From a virus (taxonomy: Duplodnaviria > Heunggongvirae > Uroviricota > Caudoviricetes): a stretch of 46,799 nucleotides of DNA. The stretch lies in the IMG/VR virus record IMGVR_UViG_2703718778_000015. One strand, written 5' to 3'. The position numbers were made by a program, and so were the translations under genes. The notes beneath the pieces are model-generated. The model was not told the DNA's origin. It did no database searches and worked only from the letters and a program-made list of their open reading frames with translations. Shown here one piece after another: positions 2,310-41,895 of the stretch; the first letter of the stretch is position 1; every line of letters starts with the position of its first letter.

Positions 2310-5300
2310 TCACGATGCGGTATCAAAATCGTCTGTATAGGATTTCAGGTAAAACAGAACCGGGTCATGGATCCGAATTTTACTCTTATCATGAAGTATT
2401 GAACCACCCATGTAAAAAAGCACATCTGCTTCATACCTGAATGTAATTTCAACCCGCACATCACCCTGTCCGGCAGGAATACTCCATGAGCCTGACGCAC
2501 TTCCGCCAACATCAGAATATACCGGCTCATATCTGCTGGCGTTTTTGGAAATCTGGACCTCCCGCTCCCCGGTTTTGACTTTGCCTGACCTGGCATGAAC
2601 GACAACTTTGTCATTTATCTTCATGATGAATTCACCTCTGGAAAATGAATACGCCATAAGCATAAGCTTGCGATCAAACGGCATGTTGTCTTTCAGCAAA
2701 ATCATTTTCTGAAAAGTCAGCTGGTTCTGAGTCATTACGCCCTGCCCCATATCAACCGTGTATCCCTTGACGATATCACCAATGATTCGGTCAGCGCTCA
2801 TCGTTCCATTAATGGTGCAGTCTTCCGCAATCGTCACGTTATTCAGCGTACCGGAACTGGCACTGATATTCCCGCTGATATCGGCATTACGGGCCGTCAG
2901 CCTGCCGTCCGGCGTCAGGGAGAATGCCGGGGGATTGCCACCGCTGGTAATGGTGGGGGCGGTAAGAACCTTTATCAGGGCCTCATTGATAAACGTCTGT
3001 CCCCCCTGCGTGACCAGTGCGGGTGTGGTATCACCATTCTCCGGATTAATGAATGCCACACGGTCCGCTGCCAGCAGTATCTGGCTCTGCATCCCGTCAG
3101 GGGTGTTCTCAATACCGGCACCGATACCGGCAATATAGCGACGACCATCCTGCATCTGCTGTAGCTTCACCGCCCACATGCTGTTCAGGTCATTATTTGT
3201 GTCCGTCTGCACACGCTGGATTTGCTGTATGGTGGCGTTCTGGTCCTCCAGCGTTTTACTGACCGTCTGTGTGATTTCATTGCGGGTTTCTGTGATGGTG
3301 GTCTGCATTTCCGCCATCTCGTCCTTCAGCTTGCTGTTGTCAATCTCTGCCCACAACGCCTCTGCCAGATGTGTTTTTCCTATCTTTTCCCGGAAAAACT
3401 CCAGATAGCCCGCAGCATCATCACTGGCCCGTCCACTGGCTTCCACAAAAGCAGATTTACCCACCAGGTTGACGCTGCGCACATAAAACCAGAAAACTTT
3501 CCCGGGTTTAATCTGGCTGCCGGAGACGCTCCACTGGCTGCCGGTCCCAAGATAACGGGCAGACGTTTCCACCTGTGCGGCGTCTGCAATTTTTGCCTCC
3601 GAAAACCAGAACTCAAACTGCACCGTCGGGTCATAAATGGTCAGTTTCGGGACTGCCGTTATCTGAAAATACCCCGGCGTCAGTTCAACACCGGCAGGCG
3701 CTGCCGGTGCGTTAATCCGGAACGTGGTGGTGGCGGGTTCGCCCTGCTGGCCATAACTGTTAATCGCCCTGACCGTCAGGGTGTATTCCCCGAGAGGCAG
3801 GCCACTGAAACGGTGCTCCGTATCGGCAGTGATGGCGGTGGTCAGCAGGCGGCTGTTCTCACCGCTTCCACTGGTCAGGCGCAGACTGAAGCGCACGCCC
3901 TTCACCACCCTCGGCGTGTCCCATTTCGCCAGCGCCAGATACTGGCTGTCAGCTGCGCTCACCTCCACCGTCAGGTGCTGCACTGCCGGTGGGATGACGC
4001 TGTTCAGGGAGCCTGACTGCGGCTCAAAGCGGGCACCGTTATCCACGATGGCTTCTTTTTCCGGTACGTGCTGCACCGCCGTGATGGCAAAGGTGCCGTC
4101 CGTGTTTTCCCGGATGGCCACACAGCGGAACAGGCGACGGCGAAGACCGGGCATTTTCAGTCCCCATACCCCGTATGTCTCCACGCCATCCGGCAAGGGG
4201 CTGACCTGTATCCGGTCCGGCGCGGGGTGTGCGGTGATGTCCACACTTACCGGCTTACCGCTGCCGTTAATCAGGTTCACCGTCGATGCACCTGTCCCCG
4301 GAAGTGTCACTTCACGGTCCAGCGTCAGGGTGCGGGTGGCAGCATCGATGGACAGGACACGTCCGCCGGTCAGGGTCCCGGCATAGTCGTTATCACAGAT
4401 TTCAATAATGTCACCGGGTGTGTGCCGCAGCCCCTGAGACCCGAGTGTGAAATCCACCGTCTGCGTTTCCAGCAGTTCGGTCTTTATCACCCACAGCCCG
4501 GCACGGTGGGCCTGACCGCGGCTGGTACAGCCGAACGCGTCCATCTTCAGCAGGTTGCGTCCGTAGCGCAGTATGGCGTCCGGGTCTTCCACCAGTTCCG
4601 TGGAGGTCTGCCAGCCGTTCTGCGGGTCGGTGTAATTCACCTCCACCGCCGTGTGCCGGTCCTTCAGGGCACTGAAGCTGTAGCGGAACCCCACGCCGTT
4701 ATCATCCACCACCACATCGCTGTTGGTGTACGGCCACACCACATCCGACGGGCGGTCCTGAACGAACGTCAGCGTCTGACCGTTCCATACCGGCATACAG
4801 CGCATCGCCGAGCAGAAATCACTGAGAACGTCCCACGCCTTACGCTGTTGTGCCAGGTACGCATTAAAGGTCATCCGCGGCTCTGTGCCCCCGAAACCAT
4901 CCGGGACCGTCTGGTCGCAGTACTGCCCGATGGCATACAGCGCCCACTTGTCCACATCCGCCGCCCCCAGGCGTTTTCCCATCCCGTAGCGCGGGTGAGT
5001 CAGCATGTCCCACAGACACCAGGCCGGGTTGTTGCTGTATGCCGGTTTCAGACTGCCGTCCCAGATACCGCTGTACGTGCGTTTTTCCGGGTCATAGTTT
5101 GACGGCACCTGGATGATGCGACCGCGGATATGGTAGTTCACCGTCATCTGCTGGCCGCCGAACTGCTCCGCATCCACCTGCAGCCCCACAATGGCCGTGT
5201 TCGGGTAGCACTGTTTCACATCGATGATTTCGGTGTATGACGACCACAGCGTCTTATTCTGCAGCTGGTCCGTGGTGCTGTCCGCCGTCTCCCTGACCAT

Positions 5301-5840
5301 CCGGATGTTAAAGGGCCGGGGAGGCAGATTATCCAGAATCACCGAGGCCAGGAACTGTGAGGTGGTCTTGCCGTTAATGGTGACGTCCTTTTCTGTCACC
5401 CAGTTACCGTTACGCTGTAACTGAATCAGCAGGCGGACGGATGCCGGGTTACGGTCACCCTTTGAGGTGGTCTCCACCAGTGACTGCACCCCGAAGGTAA
5501 CCCGCAGGCGGTCAATGTTCGCGGACGTAATGGTGCGCGTCACCGGTTTTGCCTTCGTCACTTCCACGCCCAGTCCGGTTTCAGCTCCGGAGGACTCAAA
5601 GCCTTCCGGTGGTGTCTGCTCCTGCTCCCCGGCACGCCAGACCGCGGTCACACCGTGTATCACGGGATTACCGTCCGTGTCCGTCAGCGGGGTTTTGTTC
5701 ACCAGGATACTCTGCAGGCCTTTCACCGGACCTTCAATGGGTCCCTCACCAATCGCATCAATCACGCTCATCATCTGCGTGGATTTGAGATTATCCTTCG
5801 CCTCACGAGGTGTGTGTGCCTTACCGCCACCTTTACCCAC
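2310..5840 (-). CDS. J: Tail tip host-specificity protein J (central tail fibre)
   Basis: Strong similarity along most of the length to lambda gpJ as remembered (HTPREAKDNLKST, QTPPEGFESSG, ITSANIDRLR, WCLWDMLTHPRYGMGKRLG); divergent C-terminal ~150 aa (receptor-binding region). The ORF track starts at a TTG at 5885, but a GTG at about 5840 with a GGAGAGGGGG RBS matches the lambda N-terminus (VGKGGGKAHTPREAKD). Confidence 0.93.
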   Translation of the reverse strand: MGKGGGKAHTPREAKDNLKSTQMMSVIDAIGEGPIEGPVKGLQSILVNKTPLTDTDGNPVIHGVTAVWRAGEQEQTPPEGFESSGAETGLGVEVTKAKPVTRTITSANIDRLRVTFGVQSLVETTSKGDRNPASVRLLIQLQRNGNWVTEKDVTINGKTTSQFLASVILDNLPPRPFNIRMVRETADSTTDQLQNKTLWSSYTEIIDVKQCYPNTAIVGLQVDAEQFGGQQMTVNYHIRGRIIQVPSNYDPEKRTYSGIWDGSLKPAYSNNPAWCLWDMLTHPRYGMGKRLGAADVDKWALYAIGQYCDQTVPDGFGGTEPRMTFNAYLAQQRKAWDVLSDFCSAMRCMPVWNGQTLTFVQDRPSDVVWPYTNSDVVVDDNGVGFRYSFSALKDRHTAVEVNYTDPQNGWQTSTELVEDPDAILRYGRNLLKMDAFGCTSRGQAHRAGLWVIKTELLETQTVDFTLGSQGLRHTPGDIIEICDNDYAGTLTGGRVLSIDAATRTLTLDREVTLPGTGASTVNLINGSGKPVSVDITAHPAPDRIQVSPLPDGVETYGVWGLKMPGLRRRLFRCVAIRENTDGTFAITAVQHVPEKEAIVDNGARFEPQSGSLNSVIPPAVQHLTVEVSAADSQYLALAKWDTPRVVKGVRFSLRLTSGSGENSRLLTTAITADTEHRFSGLPLGEYTLTVRAINSYGQQGEPATTTFRINAPAAPAGVELTPGYFQITAVPKLTIYDPTVQFEFWFSEAKIADAAQVETSARYLGTGSQWSVSGSQIKPGKVFWFYVRSVNLVGKSAFVEASGRASDDAAGYLEFFREKIGKTHLAEALWAEIDNSKLKDEMAEMQTTITETRNEITQTVSKTLEDQNATIQQIQRVQTDTNNDLNSMWAVKLQQMQDGRRYIAGIGAGIENTPDGMQSQILLAADRVAFINPENGDTTPALVTQGGQTFINEALIKVLTAPTITSGGNPPAFSLTPDGRLTARNADISGNISASSGTLNNVTIAEDCTINGTMSADRIIGDIVKGYTVDMGQGVMTQNQLTFQKMILLKDNMPFDRKLMLMAYSFSRGEFIMKINDKVVVHARSGKVKTGEREVQISKNASRYEPVYSDVGGSASGSWSIPAGQGDVRVEITFRYEADVLFYMGGSILHDKSKIRIHDPVLFYLKSYTDDFDTAS

Positions 5841-5887
5841 TCGATCCCCCTCTCCTGTCTGATGTCTGAATTTGTTTATGCCCAAAA

Positions 5888-5920
5888 AACAACAGGCACC
5901 CCGGAGGGTGCCTGCATCAT
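5888..5920 (-). terminator. Hairpin plus T-tract on the minus strand immediately upstream of the J ribosome-binding site
   Basis: Minus-strand reading caggcaccctccggggtgcctg followed by ttgttttttggg; the ORF-track TTG start of J falls inside this T-tract. Confidence 0.4.
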
Positions 5921-5951
5921 GACGGAATAAAAATTCTGAATATCTTCACAT

Positions 5952-5980
5952 TTTCACAAACTGACTGTGGCGCGTATAAT
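5952..5980 (+). promoter_or_regulatory. Sigma70-like promoter (TTCACA - 16 bp - TATAAT) in the I-J intergenic region, reading antisense to the tail operon
   Basis: Direct reading: ttcacaaactgactgtggcgcgtataat; the -10 hexamer is a perfect TATAAT. Confidence 0.55.
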
Positions 5981-5986
5981 TTCGCT

Positions 5987-6084
5987 GCGTTAGTGTTTTT
6001 TCTGCCCGAGTAACAAAAACAACTCCTTAACATTAATCTTCATTTGTCTGTCCCGCAGCTCCGCGATCACTGCGGGATTTTTTT
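5987..6084 (+). ncRNA. Candidate small RNA of about 100 nt (promoter to intrinsic terminator), no plausible ORF
   Basis: Bounded by the promoter above and the terminator at 6052-6084; the only in-frame start gives a 6-codon ORF; contains a CA-rich stretch (taacaaaaacaactcc). Confidence 0.4.
6052..6084 (+). terminator. Intrinsic terminator on the plus strand
   Basis: cccgcag-ctccgcgatca-ctgcggg followed by attttttt. Confidence 0.6.
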
Positions 6085-6089
6085 ATGTT

Positions 6090-6770
6090 TTATCCCTGTC
6101 GACCAATAACCACGACCTTTCCGCCCCCGCCTTCATCACGGGTACTGATGTCCTGGGATATACGGCGGGAGCCAACCAGCATTTCCCCGTAAGGCACCGG
6201 CATCGGGTTACCCTGGGCAATCATGTTGTCCAGTGACGAAAAATACGTGTTCTGTCTGCCGTTATCCGTTGCGCGGTAATCCGGTGTTTTTGCCTTCGGG
6301 GCCAGCATCTGGGCCACACCACCCAGAATCATGCTGGCTCCAAGTGAAAACAGCATCGTGGTGGCAGAAAAACCACCGGCTGCCAGGGCTGAACCCCATA
6401 ACGCCATCGATGCCCCGGCAGTGAAGAAAGAGCCCACGATGGCTGCCGCCCCCAGCACAATCTGCAGTCCACCCTTTCCGGCCCCGGCCAGTCGCGGCAC
6501 AATGTGGATGACCGTTCCCTCACCCAGCTGTTCGTGAAGACGGGCGTACACCGCCTCCGGTGCCGTGTCCTCACCGGCAATACGTATCTGGTACCAGCCT
6601 TCGTTCATCTGACGGCGGAATCCGGGCACCTGTAACGACAGCGCCCGGATGGCTTCCGCTGCCGTGTTCACATACAGGCTGAGGCGGCGGCCAAATCGTT
6701 GTAAATCCCCGTGAAGGCAGATGCGTGCCAGTGGCGGTGACGCCAGACAGAATGCGTTCGTCGTTGCCAT
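6090..6770 (-). CDS. I: Tail assembly protein I
   Basis: 226 aa; matches lambda gpI as remembered (ARICLxGDLQRFGRR, GAAAIxGSFFTAGA, NTYFSSLDNMxAQGN). Confidence 0.9.
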   Translation of the reverse strand: MATTNAFCLASPPLARICLHGDLQRFGRRLSLYVNTAAEAIRALSLQVPGFRRQMNEGWYQIRIAGEDTAPEAVYARLHEQLGEGTVIHIVPRLAGAGKGGLQIVLGAAAIVGSFFTAGASMALWGSALAAGGFSATTMLFSLGASMILGGVAQMLAPKAKTPDYRATDNGRQNTYFSSLDNMIAQGNPMPVPYGEMLVGSRRISQDISTRDEGGGGKVVVIGRQG

Positions 6771-15438: not shown

Positions 15439-15495
15439 AAATCAGTTCCTTTCATTCAGAAATCAGTCAGGCCACCGCGGTGGCCTGATAACGTG

Positions 15496-15843
15496 TTACG
15501 GCAGCGCCGCGTGACTCAGGGCAGTGCCAGCAAAGGCATTTGCCTTTTTGTGTTCATCCACACTTTCAGGCCAGCGGATTGCCTCCGTCGCAAAGGTCCC
15601 CGACTTGTAATACGTCAGCACCGTCTCTGTGCCTTCAAGCGGCAGTACCAGTATGCCAGCCGCACTACCGGCTTTCTGTCCGTCCCAGACCACCAGTTTC
15701 CCGCTGGCTTCATCCAGCATCAGGGGCGTCAGTGCCTGTGTTGCCTGAGAAATCCCGCTGCTGCCTGTGGCGGTATGAGCCGGATCATTACCGGCAAAAA
15801 TACGTACTTCTGCACGTTGTTCAGTGATGGTTTTCGTTACCAT
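15496..15843 (-). CDS. D: Head decoration protein D
   Basis: 115 aa; gpD-like length and position. Confidence 0.88.
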   Translation of the reverse strand: MVTKTITEQRAEVRIFAGNDPAHTATGSSGISQATQALTPLMLDEASGKLVVWDGQKAGSAAGILVLPLEGTETVLTYYKSGTFATEAIRWPESVDEHKKANAFAGTALSHAALP

Positions 15844-29372: not shown

Positions 29373-29553
29373 GAATCCTCCCGGTCGGGATAATGTTGTG
29401 AGTCAGATAAGGAGCGAGCTGAAGTCCGGAAGTTACAGGACAATGGCAGGAGGAAGACTACAGCCCGCAATACGAAAAAGGCCGCGCAGTTGCGCAGCCT
29501 TATGAATTCTGGTTAAAATCCATTCGATTATAAAAATGTATATCTCATGCTGT

Positions 29554-29580
29554 TGCCCGAACCCACTCGGGCTTTTTTTT
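29554..29580 (+). terminator. Intrinsic terminator on the plus strand, within a cluster of GC-rich stem-loops
   Basis: gcccgaacccactcgggc followed by T8; the adjacent hairpin gcccctccggagaggggc (about 29595-29612) has a U-rich tail on the minus strand, making the pair bidirectional. Confidence 0.5.
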
Positions 29581-29944
29581 GCCCACAAGAAAGCCCCTCC
29601 GGAGAGGGGCTAAAGCCGCGTATCTGTATCATCATGCACATGGTGCCGGGTGCCTCCCGGTGAGTTCAGCCCGGTGCCACTAAACCCGCGTCATTCTCGT
29701 TTTGATAATCAGAGATTATACCGTCACCAGTCGCCCCTCCGCTCAGGGGGATTCACCATGCCAGTTTCTTTTAACAAACTCCCCGCAAACCAGACAACAG
29801 TCAACCGCCTGAATTGTGAGGTATTTAAAAATTTCAACGGGTAACTGATACCCTGCTAATCGCCTGATGCTTTCTTTTTCAGCAACGGGAAAGCAACAAC
29901 CACCACACCCATCAGCCGCCCATTTACCACAAATAAAAAAGCCT

Positions 29945-32797: not shown

Positions 32798-32953
32798 TTA
32801 CTCCTCAGGTTCGTAAACTGTGAAGACAGCGACCTCCGTCTGGCCGGTTCGGATTCGTACCTCGCAGAGGTCTTTCCTCGTTACCAGTGCCGTCACTATG
32901 ACGGTTAAACAGATGACGATCAGGGCGATTAACATCGCCTTTTGCTGCTTCAT
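32798..32953 (-). CDS. hok: Hok-family type I toxin (small membrane peptide)
   Basis: 51 aa, MKQQKAMLIALIVICLTVIVTALVTRKDLCEVRIRTGQTEVAVFTVYEPEE, one residue from HokD/RelF as remembered; strong AAGGAGAAG RBS. Confidence 0.9.
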   Translation of the reverse strand: MKQQKAMLIALIVICLTVIVTALVTRKDLCEVRIRTGQTEVAVFTVYEPEE

Positions 32954-33244
32954 AGCCTGCTTCTCCTTGCCTTTCGGCACGTAAGAGGCTAACCTAGATT
33001 TGCCGTTCATAGATTGAGCCTCAGATTAATGTTAAGCGTCTTGCAGGACGCGTAATGTTAACTGGGGCTTTTCTCTATCTGCCTTTTGGTATTCATGCCT
33101 GAGACAGATAGCCTCAAGCACCCGCAGCAATTCTACTTAACTATCCTTTCCCCGCAAATCGTTTTTATCCCCAGCGACAAATCGAATACACCACCAGCGC
33201 CACCGCCATTGCGATCCCTACCGTTGTGAATGCCTCAGGCCAGG

Positions 33245-41387: not shown

Positions 41388-41895
41388 TGCTTAATGAATC
41401 CTTAAAACTGTGGTGATTTTAAGGATACCACCTCGCCTGACGTGGTTAAAAGCAGGCACACAACACGAAAGCGCACGGCGAGGTTTCTGGTTCATAGATG
41501 GCTTGTCGTTAAATTTTCGTCGACCGTGCGCTCCCGGTTGTGGCAATCCGCGAAACGGCGCGGCGGTAAGTATGGCGGGGGTACTCTTCTCCCCCTGTGG
41601 AGCACCGGGTTGTCAGGTTGACCATACGCTTAAGAGACAACCACGCTGCAACGCCCTCTGTTATCCATTTTCTGGTGACGTTTGGCGGTATCAGTTTTAC
41701 TCCGTGACTGCTCTGCCGCCCTTTTTAAAGTGAATTTTGTGATGTGGTGAATGCGGCTGAGCGCACGCGGAACAGTTAAAACCAAAAACAGTGTTATGGG
41801 TGGATTCTCTGTATCCGGCGTTAATTGTTAACTGGTTAACGTCACCTGGAGGCACCAGGCACCGCATCACAAAATTCATTGTTGAGGACGCGATA

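Follow-up and report, generated by a model that had tools for sequence, protein, structure and literature searches.

The window analysed here is a 46,799-nt stretch of DNA from a tailed virus (Caudoviricetes; IMG/VR record IMGVR_UViG_2703718778_000015) whose tail operon lies on the minus strand. Gene limits were set by our own reading together with the PGAP annotation of a genome identical over 5841-6089. The stop codon of tail assembly gene I (TAA) occupies 6090-6092 on the minus strand in both, and J has a GGAG-type ribosome-binding site (RBS) upstream of its GTG start, so that the interval 5841-6089 is exactly the I-J spacer (features in Table 1). In lambda the two genes are separated by 60 bp (from the end of I at 15444 to the start of J at 15505), against 249 bp here. 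A first-pass annotation of this DNA, made from the sequence alone, was thus right to call the region expanded, and somewhat loose in describing the two lambda genes as essentially contiguous. With its own promoter and terminator between genes that are near neighbours in lambda, the insertion is of the moron type. All sequence features that the annotation described were found where it had placed them, with four small corrections.

Table 1. Features of the I-J spacer and the flanking tail genes, in window coordinates.
Feature	Coordinates	Strand	Basis and remarks
J, tail tip / host specificity gene	2310..5840	(-)	GTG start at 5840
I-J intergenic spacer	5841..6089	.	249 bp, moron-type insertion containing the whole unit; gene limits and lambda comparison
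Intrinsic-terminator-like hairpin and T run	5883..5915	(-), tail-operon strand	Abuts the J RBS on its upstream side
A/T-rich stretch, possibly an UP element	5925..5952	(+)	5' of the -35 hexamer; second TTCACA at 5945-5950
-35 hexamer TTCACA	5953..5958	(+)	Scan; kept in all spacer types except one (871-nt type, L062, promoter block lost)
-10 hexamer TATAAT	5975..5980	(+)	Scan; AATAAT or GATAAT in a few variants
Primary transcript, predicted 98 nt	5987..6084	(+)	Promoter geometry: start about 7 nt past the -10 hexamer, end in the T run
Stretch matching 83-nt PasB of E2348/69	6003..6084	(+)	BLAST, 96.4% over 83 nt; two substitutions, one missing C
AAC AAA AAC AAC, four AAN triplets; proposed Hfq distal-face (A-R-N) motif	6012..6023	(+)	Invariant columns
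Single-stranded stretch TAATCTTCATTTGTCTGT, putative seed	6034..6051	(+)	Just upstream of the terminator; ATCTT invariant
Intrinsic terminator	6052..6084	(+)	7-bp invariant stem, 11-nt loop, seven U; ends 5 nt from the I stop codon
Tail assembly gene I	6090..6770	(-)	Longest ORF; PGAP call is 6090-6671

On the plus strand, opposite the tail genes, the near-consensus sigma-70 promoter reported earlier (TTCACA-16-TATAAT) is present at 5953-5980 and matches 11 of the 12 consensus positions. A 2-kb scan returned 2 sigma-70-type sites versus 1.0 ± 1.1 in shuffled sequences, a count that is not significant alone. The promoter and terminator are judged to be more than chance because of their conservation: when 27 distinct spacers were compared by mean pairwise identity for each block, the promoter block (5925-5983) and the terminator each reached 95%, against 58% for the mosaic J-proximal part (5841-5924). 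The 5' leader (5984-6002) reached 86% and the RNA body (6003-6051) 73%.

The terminator stem pairs CCCGCAG (6052-6058) with CTGCGGG (6070-6076) across an 11-nt loop and is followed by an A and seven T (6078-6084). The hairpin has a predicted energy of -14.9 kcal/mol (z = -3.2), and none of 200 shuffled sequences was as stable. Its stem begins 71 nt past the -10 hexamer, in agreement with the strong terminator placed about 70 nt downstream in the first-pass annotation, which had counted eight T in the run instead of seven. RNAalifold on 13 distinct RNA variants supports the terminator only, with its seven pairs invariant and a loop of 9 to 16 nt. The predicted plus-strand transcript contains no AUG, and its GUG frame runs for 6 codons. 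A frame of 21 codons opening with TTG (6044-6109) crosses the terminator and has no purine-rich Shine-Dalgarno sequence in front of it, so the earlier remark that no ORF exceeds six codons is inexact as a count and holds for credible frames.

The spacer matches a known RNA. PasB (pathogenicity-associated sRNA B) is an 83-nt RNA of prophage PP6 in EPEC O127:H6 E2348/69 (NC_011601.1, 1466343-1466261, minus strand; Table S6, PMC8550237), and its published Northern probe (AATCCCGCAGTGATCGCGGAGCT; same table) is the exact reverse complement of window positions 6057-6079. In E2348/69, too, the RNA is encoded opposite the tail genes, in the gap separating the tail assembly gene from gpJ, and it ends 5 nt from the I stop codon as it does here. 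Whether this was one of the named RNAs, a question left open by the first reading, is answered by the probe match and the 96.4% identity, and the proposal of a small RNA antisense to the tail operon gains support from that identity and from position. An Rfam scan had been suggested as one means of identification; no Rfam model matches the interval 5841-6089 at its gathering score or at E = 10, and BLAST with the published PasB gave the identity instead. The interval is thus very probably a copy of pasB, within a PasB/EcOnc22-24 family, and a self-contained sRNA moron antisense to the late operon. The element is already known: Hfq crosslinking revealed it in 2014, the name PasB dates from 2021, and a survey of its distribution followed in 2026. 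Among the matches listed, no RefSeq annotation lies under any PasB relative.

The window copy and PasB of E2348/69 have near-identical promoters, with one base different just upstream of the -10 hexamer, and share an identical terminator stem-loop and U tail and the same I-J position and orientation. They differ in the body, where the window has A for C at position 27 and A for G at position 33 (both single-stranded and both within the region proposed to pair). The window copy also lacks one C in front of the terminator and has an additional one at 6002, inside the 5' U run. Its predicted duplexes with yhhX and fabR/yijD, partners known from E2348/69, are weaker than those of E2348/69 PasB. 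The window RNA would be a slightly divergent PasB, which fits a drifting pairing region between conserved expression signals.

Expression, Hfq dependence and the partner list are taken from relatives in EPEC and EHEC; identity, position and the pattern of conservation are the evidence from the window itself. In EPEC, PasB is seen on Northern blots, depends on Hfq for its stability and comes 15th when RNAs are ordered by how many RIL-seq interactions they have (Pearl Mizrahi et al., 2021; PMC8550237). Its level is higher in the non-activating condition, an overnight static LB culture (PMC8550237). In one RNA-seq table of that study, mean counts are 1082 for pasB, 1.6 for the flanking I and 6.7 for J (PMC8550237), and on these counts PasB is made independently of the late operon. 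A U tract of 7 is given for PasB in Table S5 (PMC8550237), and the window tail also has seven U. The promoter region includes a direct repeat of TTCACA at 5945-5958 on the plus strand (TTCACATTTTCACA), the second copy of which is the -35 hexamer; the repeat block is invariant in most variants and might be a regulator site tied to stationary-phase expression of PasB.

Promoter geometry predicts an RNA of 98 nt, versus published sizes of 83-85 nt for the relatives; the 83-nt size of PasB comes from read coverage and Northern blot (PMC8550237). These sizes would place the 5' end near 6002-6003, and either processing at the 5' U run or the approximate nature of the sizes may account for the difference. 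A 5' hairpin between the U run and the A-rich stretch was considered and dropped: 92% of alignment cells were compatible with it and one pair was compensatory, but it was no better than shuffled sequences, and it could not form in an 83-nt species.

The same RNA appears in EHEC Sakai under another name. A CRAC study of Hfq lists three plus-strand peaks, homologous to one another, as EcOnc22 (prophage Sp15), EcOnc23 (Sp14) and EcOnc24 (Sp11) (PMC4104026, Table S2; Tree et al., 2014), and EcOnc22 gave a Northern band of about 85 nt and was destabilised in an hfq deletion (PMC4104026). The Sakai coordinates of that study are older than NC_002695.2, and the shift was calibrated at +133 to +150 with AgvB (Rfam match at 1941920-1941981 versus 1941783-1941835 in PMC4104026) and HnrS (promoter and terminator at about 2234372-2234437 versus 2234239-2234287). 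In the current record, each of the three peaks falls within the I-J spacer of its own prophage, where the tail genes are on the minus strand and the peaks on the PasB strand. After the shift their positions coincide with the PasB homologue's body, and their offsets from their respective spacers are equal within 2 nt. Published coordinates are 133-150 nt below RefSeq over about 1.9-2.9 Mb, and taken unshifted they would misplace EcOnc22-24 onto the J-proximal hairpin.

EcOnc22-24 thus resemble PasB in being Hfq-bound, Hfq-dependent RNAs of about 85 nt in an I-J spacer opposite the tail genes. The EcOnc22 copy in Sp15 and the window have the -35 hexamer, ATCTTC block and terminator stem in common; the Sakai body differs in having GAAAAAUAACUCCAUAACG, the -10 hexamer AATAAT and 6 nt missing. 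That EcOnc22-24 belong to the PasB family is a link drawn here from coordinates and sequence, and it is absent from the papers covered on either name. The term EcOnc is never used by Zhu, Shabalina and Storz (2026; bioRxiv 10.64898/2026.05.13.724894), and a 2021 review still gave the targets of EcOnc22-24 as unknown.

Relatives of the transcribed part were found in 1772 of 5426 complete E. coli genomes, at up to 10 places per genome. Shiga-toxin-type (EHEC) strains among the matches listed have 4-8 places, O157:H7 records 4-7, and a further 147 phage records with relatives are mostly those of Stx-converting phages. In viral loci fetched by means of the I protein, the PasB terminator adjoins I in 80 of 80. 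A scan of one genome per species found true relatives only in Escherichia albertii, apart from true matches on three small contigs; its remaining matches were rejected as unrelated terminators. The contigs, filed as Streptomyces flavalbus (L106), Parendozoicomonas haliclonae (L100) and a Clostridiales MAG (L110), carry an E. coli I-J region at 82-95% identity. The first two, both tiny (91-95% and 82% identical), look like contamination, and the Clostridiales contig (85-87% identical) may be a mis-binned relative.

The spacers differ most on the side of J. In short spacers of the window type, the J-proximal part carries the minus-strand hairpin, which in the window runs from 5915 to 5892, is followed by TGTTTTTTGG and has a predicted energy of -24.5 kcal/mol (z = -4.1); a second hairpin with a T tract immediately upstream of the J RBS had been noticed in the first reading, and it is there. 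Spacers of the E2348/69 type, whose hairpin was folded as well, have this stem with another loop, and three other short spacer variants have a mismatch or a G-U change within the stem. A second RNA ending at this hairpin was considered and rejected, as the scan found no minus-strand promoter for it. Most likely the hairpin stops or buffers non-antiterminated transcription into J, or protects the I transcript. The best Rfam match in the interval, a partial one of 25 bits between this hairpin and the terminator of STnc100, was judged to reflect a hairpin only.

Long spacers (about 363 nt from the I stop to an anchor about 20 nt inside J) have the hairpin replaced by about 190 bp of unrelated sequence containing a different hairpin. 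Spacers of this type, seen in L006 (2182-2544) and some 45 further IMG/VR loci, keep a complete PasB unit, and their replaced part also has a second promoter-like sequence, TTGCCA-18-TATCCT; the new, strong hairpin (-20.7 kcal/mol, z = -4.3) has its T run on the PasB strand, and the pair may be a second small transcription unit. Rfam returned nothing for this second promoter and hairpin region. Three loci with an 871-nt spacer (L062, L066 and L075; 2182-3052) keep the PasB body and terminator and have lost the TTCACA/TATAAT promoter, and their PasB copy may be disrupted or re-wired.

Within the RNA body, conservation follows a triplet pattern. Across the 13-variant alignment, A6016, A6018, A6019, A6021 and A6022 are invariant and 6015 differs in one variant, whereas the third triplet bases (6017, 6020 and 6023) vary among A, G, C and T. 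These triplets read AAA-AAC-AAC in the window, AAG-AAU-AAU in the commonest Stx-phage type and AAA-AAU-AAC in Sakai Sp15. Since the A positions are kept while the C positions change, the AAN periodicity suggests an Hfq-binding motif. A-R-N periodicity is of the type that binds the distal face of Hfq. At 6015-6023 such triplets are single-stranded and upstream of the terminator, as in class II RNAs, and we take PasB to be presumably a class II Hfq-dependent sRNA, with an A-R-N motif and a U tail as in ChiX and MgrR. Motifs of the A-R-N type are reported at Hfq sites by the CRAC study (Tree et al., 2014; PMC4104026).

A seed for PasB was placed just upstream of the terminator from conservation alone (Zhu, Shabalina and Storz, 2026; bioRxiv 10.64898/2026.05.13.724894), and in our 13-variant alignment the invariant ATCTT at 6036-6040 fits that position. 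Partners of PasB in E2348/69 are given in the RIL-seq tables of PMC8550237, of which the following holds for the part covered. PasB is the second RNA of the chimeras in all but one row of both sheets, a position typical of a regulator, and of the 37 interactions that Table S5 credits to it, 30 seem to involve coding or 5' UTR regions. The dominant partner is a plus-strand RNA at 743482-743611 in prophage PP2 (774 chimeras, in all three non-activating libraries), and the equivalent region of PP5 contributes 54 chimeras. This partner region is, in both prophages, the spacer between a SASA-family esterase gene and a class II holin gene. Weaker partners in the same part of the tables are a gp16-family gene junction of PP9 (71 chimeras), yhhX (57) and fabR (50), followed by ygeV, bfpB, ftsZ, espC, caiF and yibT. 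No published regulatory effect of PasB on any target was found in the literature.

Two observations concern the esterase-holin spacer itself. In L088 (2983-3213, equivalent to E2348/69 743482-743712), inspection by eye found on the holin strand a promoter-like TTGTCA...TATAAC and a terminator-like GCCGTCAG...CTGGCGGCTTTTTT, and the PP2 spacer lies antisense to, and overlaps, the start of PasA at its 5' end. The prophage of the window has no PP2-type holin leader; DUF1378 and DUF826 genes stand at that position.

Plausible-looking duplexes were predicted between PasB and its partners, including one in which PasB nt 34-50 forms 16 bp with the holin leader and one of 11 contiguous bp over the Shine-Dalgarno sequence of yijD. 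The local duplex method recovers the validated pairs AgvB-GcvB (0 of 60 shuffles as good) and HnrS-hha (1 of 60). When duplexes with the holin leader, the gp16 junction, yhhX and fabR/yijD were compared with those of shuffled PasB, yhhX was the only one to do better (1 of 120 shuffles). Definition of a seed from predicted duplexes was accordingly dropped, and we claim none from them.

We propose that in a lysogen host sigma-70 RNA polymerase would start at TTCACA-16-TATAAT and stop at the invariant hairpin and its seven U, giving an RNA of about 83-98 nt. Hfq would bind and stabilise this RNA, with probable contacts at the 3' U tail and the conserved AAN repeats, and the RNA would then pair in trans by way of its single-stranded middle and of the segment that directly precedes the terminator. 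Its main partner in EPEC is the esterase-holin spacer RNA of two other prophages, with some 30 mRNAs as weaker ones. The exact 5' end, the part played by the AAN repeats in Hfq binding, the seed and any regulatory outcome are what we infer in this scheme.

An alternative is that PasB acts in cis, by pairing perfectly with the I-J spacer of the tail mRNA during lytic growth and so causing its cleavage or altering J expression, or by interference of its convergent promoter with transcription of the late genes. The position and orientation of the unit are fixed in every locus examined, its 3' end approaches the I stop codon to within 5 nt, and the late transcript must hold about 100 nt fully complementary to PasB. 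PasB, however, overlaps neither the coding sequences of I and J nor the RBS of J, its promoter, with the -35 hexamer at 5953, is some 110 bp away from the GTG of J at 5840, and it has many partners in trans, with which a cis role would be compatible. The part of the RIL-seq tables covered has no I or J entry under six UTR, intergenic and antisense names, an absence that is uninformative because both genes were almost silent in those cultures. We regard an action in cis as unlikely.

The first-pass annotation had also offered the CA-rich stretch of the transcript as a decoy for a GU-rich seed. In that reading, the RNA would be an anti-sRNA that works like AgvB: positions 6012-6023 would imitate an mRNA target and tie up a seed, for instance region R1 of GcvB. 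The stretch (aacaaaaacaac) is present at these positions, and RIL-seq, duplex prediction and conservation all leave the decoy role unsupported. It is true that AACAAAAACAAC is rich in C and A, and that an AsxR-like anti-sRNA in the same window indicates that such RNAs occur in this prophage. Yet the gcvB-pasB pair is absent from the block of sRNA-sRNA pairs that heads both RIL-seq sheets, as far as those sheets were covered (PMC8550237), and GcvB, abundant on Hfq in the non-activating condition, does not appear among the PasB rows covered on that sheet (those up to gshA and those beginning with ydbJ). Of the predicted PasB-GcvB duplexes, the best (-12.4 kcal/mol) was equalled by 32 of 60 shuffles, whereas the AgvB-GcvB control reached -19.4 kcal/mol with 0 of 60 by the same method. 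The GcvB target consensus CACAACA is absent from the interval, and other family members replace the C positions (AUAAGAAUAAU) and keep the A positions. The Rfam models of AgvB and AsxR also have no match here, even at E = 10, and altogether a decoy function is highly unlikely.

AgvB and AsxR (Rfam RF02702 and RF02703) resemble PasB as short, Hfq-bound prophage RNAs opposing late genes and as members of a family whose ends are conserved and whose pairing region varies. They are unlike it in their PR' moron site, their size (51-60 nt) and their proven sponge mechanism, of which PasB gives no such signal. The two models, which include a conserved 42-nt 3' domain, found nothing in 5700-6250 even at E = 10; they do work, since they found AsxR at 29525-29577 of the window and AgvB in Sakai. 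The anti-sRNA site is marked by a convergent sRNA pair 3' of PR', whereas the I-J interval is part of the tail operon, some 23 kb away from the STnc100/AsxR pair. Membership of PasB among these anti-sRNAs was ruled out by its site, the absence of a sequence or Rfam match and the lack of pairing with the GcvB seed. The AsxR-family RNA at 29525-29577 (+) scores at the Rfam gathering threshold (63.0 versus 63) and is convergent with a full STnc100 at 29581-29790 (-; 152 bits); its 5' variable domain differs from that of AsxR at several positions, which could mean a different core sRNA target. The window also holds a sok antitoxin RNA at 32948-33123 (-; 112 bits) and a perfect-length DicF RNA at 41670-41721 (+; 77 bits).

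HnrS (EcOnc10-12; PMC13502914) is, like PasB, a multicopy Hfq-bound sRNA of prophage late regions, and the two have the octamer UAAUCUUC and A-rich triplets in common. HnrS differs in its locus and its terminator, and it represses hha (PMC13502914). A shared target was considered and rejected: HnrS pairs as published, and the PasB variants do not (55-60 of 60 shuffles were better).

Least credible of all is that the spacer has no RNA function and amounts to two terminators or insulators plus a chance resemblance to a promoter: promoter-like sites are indeed not enriched in the 2-kb scan and both hairpins could be plain transcription stops or mRNA-decay barriers, but homologous loci in two pathotypes yield an abundant Hfq-bound RNA of the expected size, the promoter block is highly conserved beside a mosaic neighbouring spacer, and published Northern blots and Hfq crosslinking on relatives contradict the idea.

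The interval resembles the lambdoid morons (Juhala et al., 2000, as cited in PMC4104026), which are likewise self-contained units between conserved phage genes; the cargo here is a non-coding RNA, unlike the protein genes of those morons. A wider view, speculative and rather doubtful, is that the RNAs of I-J junctions form a diversified family with a common promoter, terminator and AAN handle and exchangeable pairing regions. Their main job would be cross-talk between prophages, with PasB tuning the lysis genes of co-resident phages and perhaps acting also in cis on its own I-J transcript.

As a discovery the element matters little, the RNA being already known. The window gains a firm annotation that RefSeq and Rfam lack, and two names in the literature, EcOnc22-24 and PasB, are now connected. 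PasB relatives are broader in distribution, reaching a third of complete E. coli genomes, and more diverse in the pairing region than one would gather from the stringent count in print. A testable lead on the function of PasB comes from its RIL-seq chimeras with holin leader RNA of other prophages.
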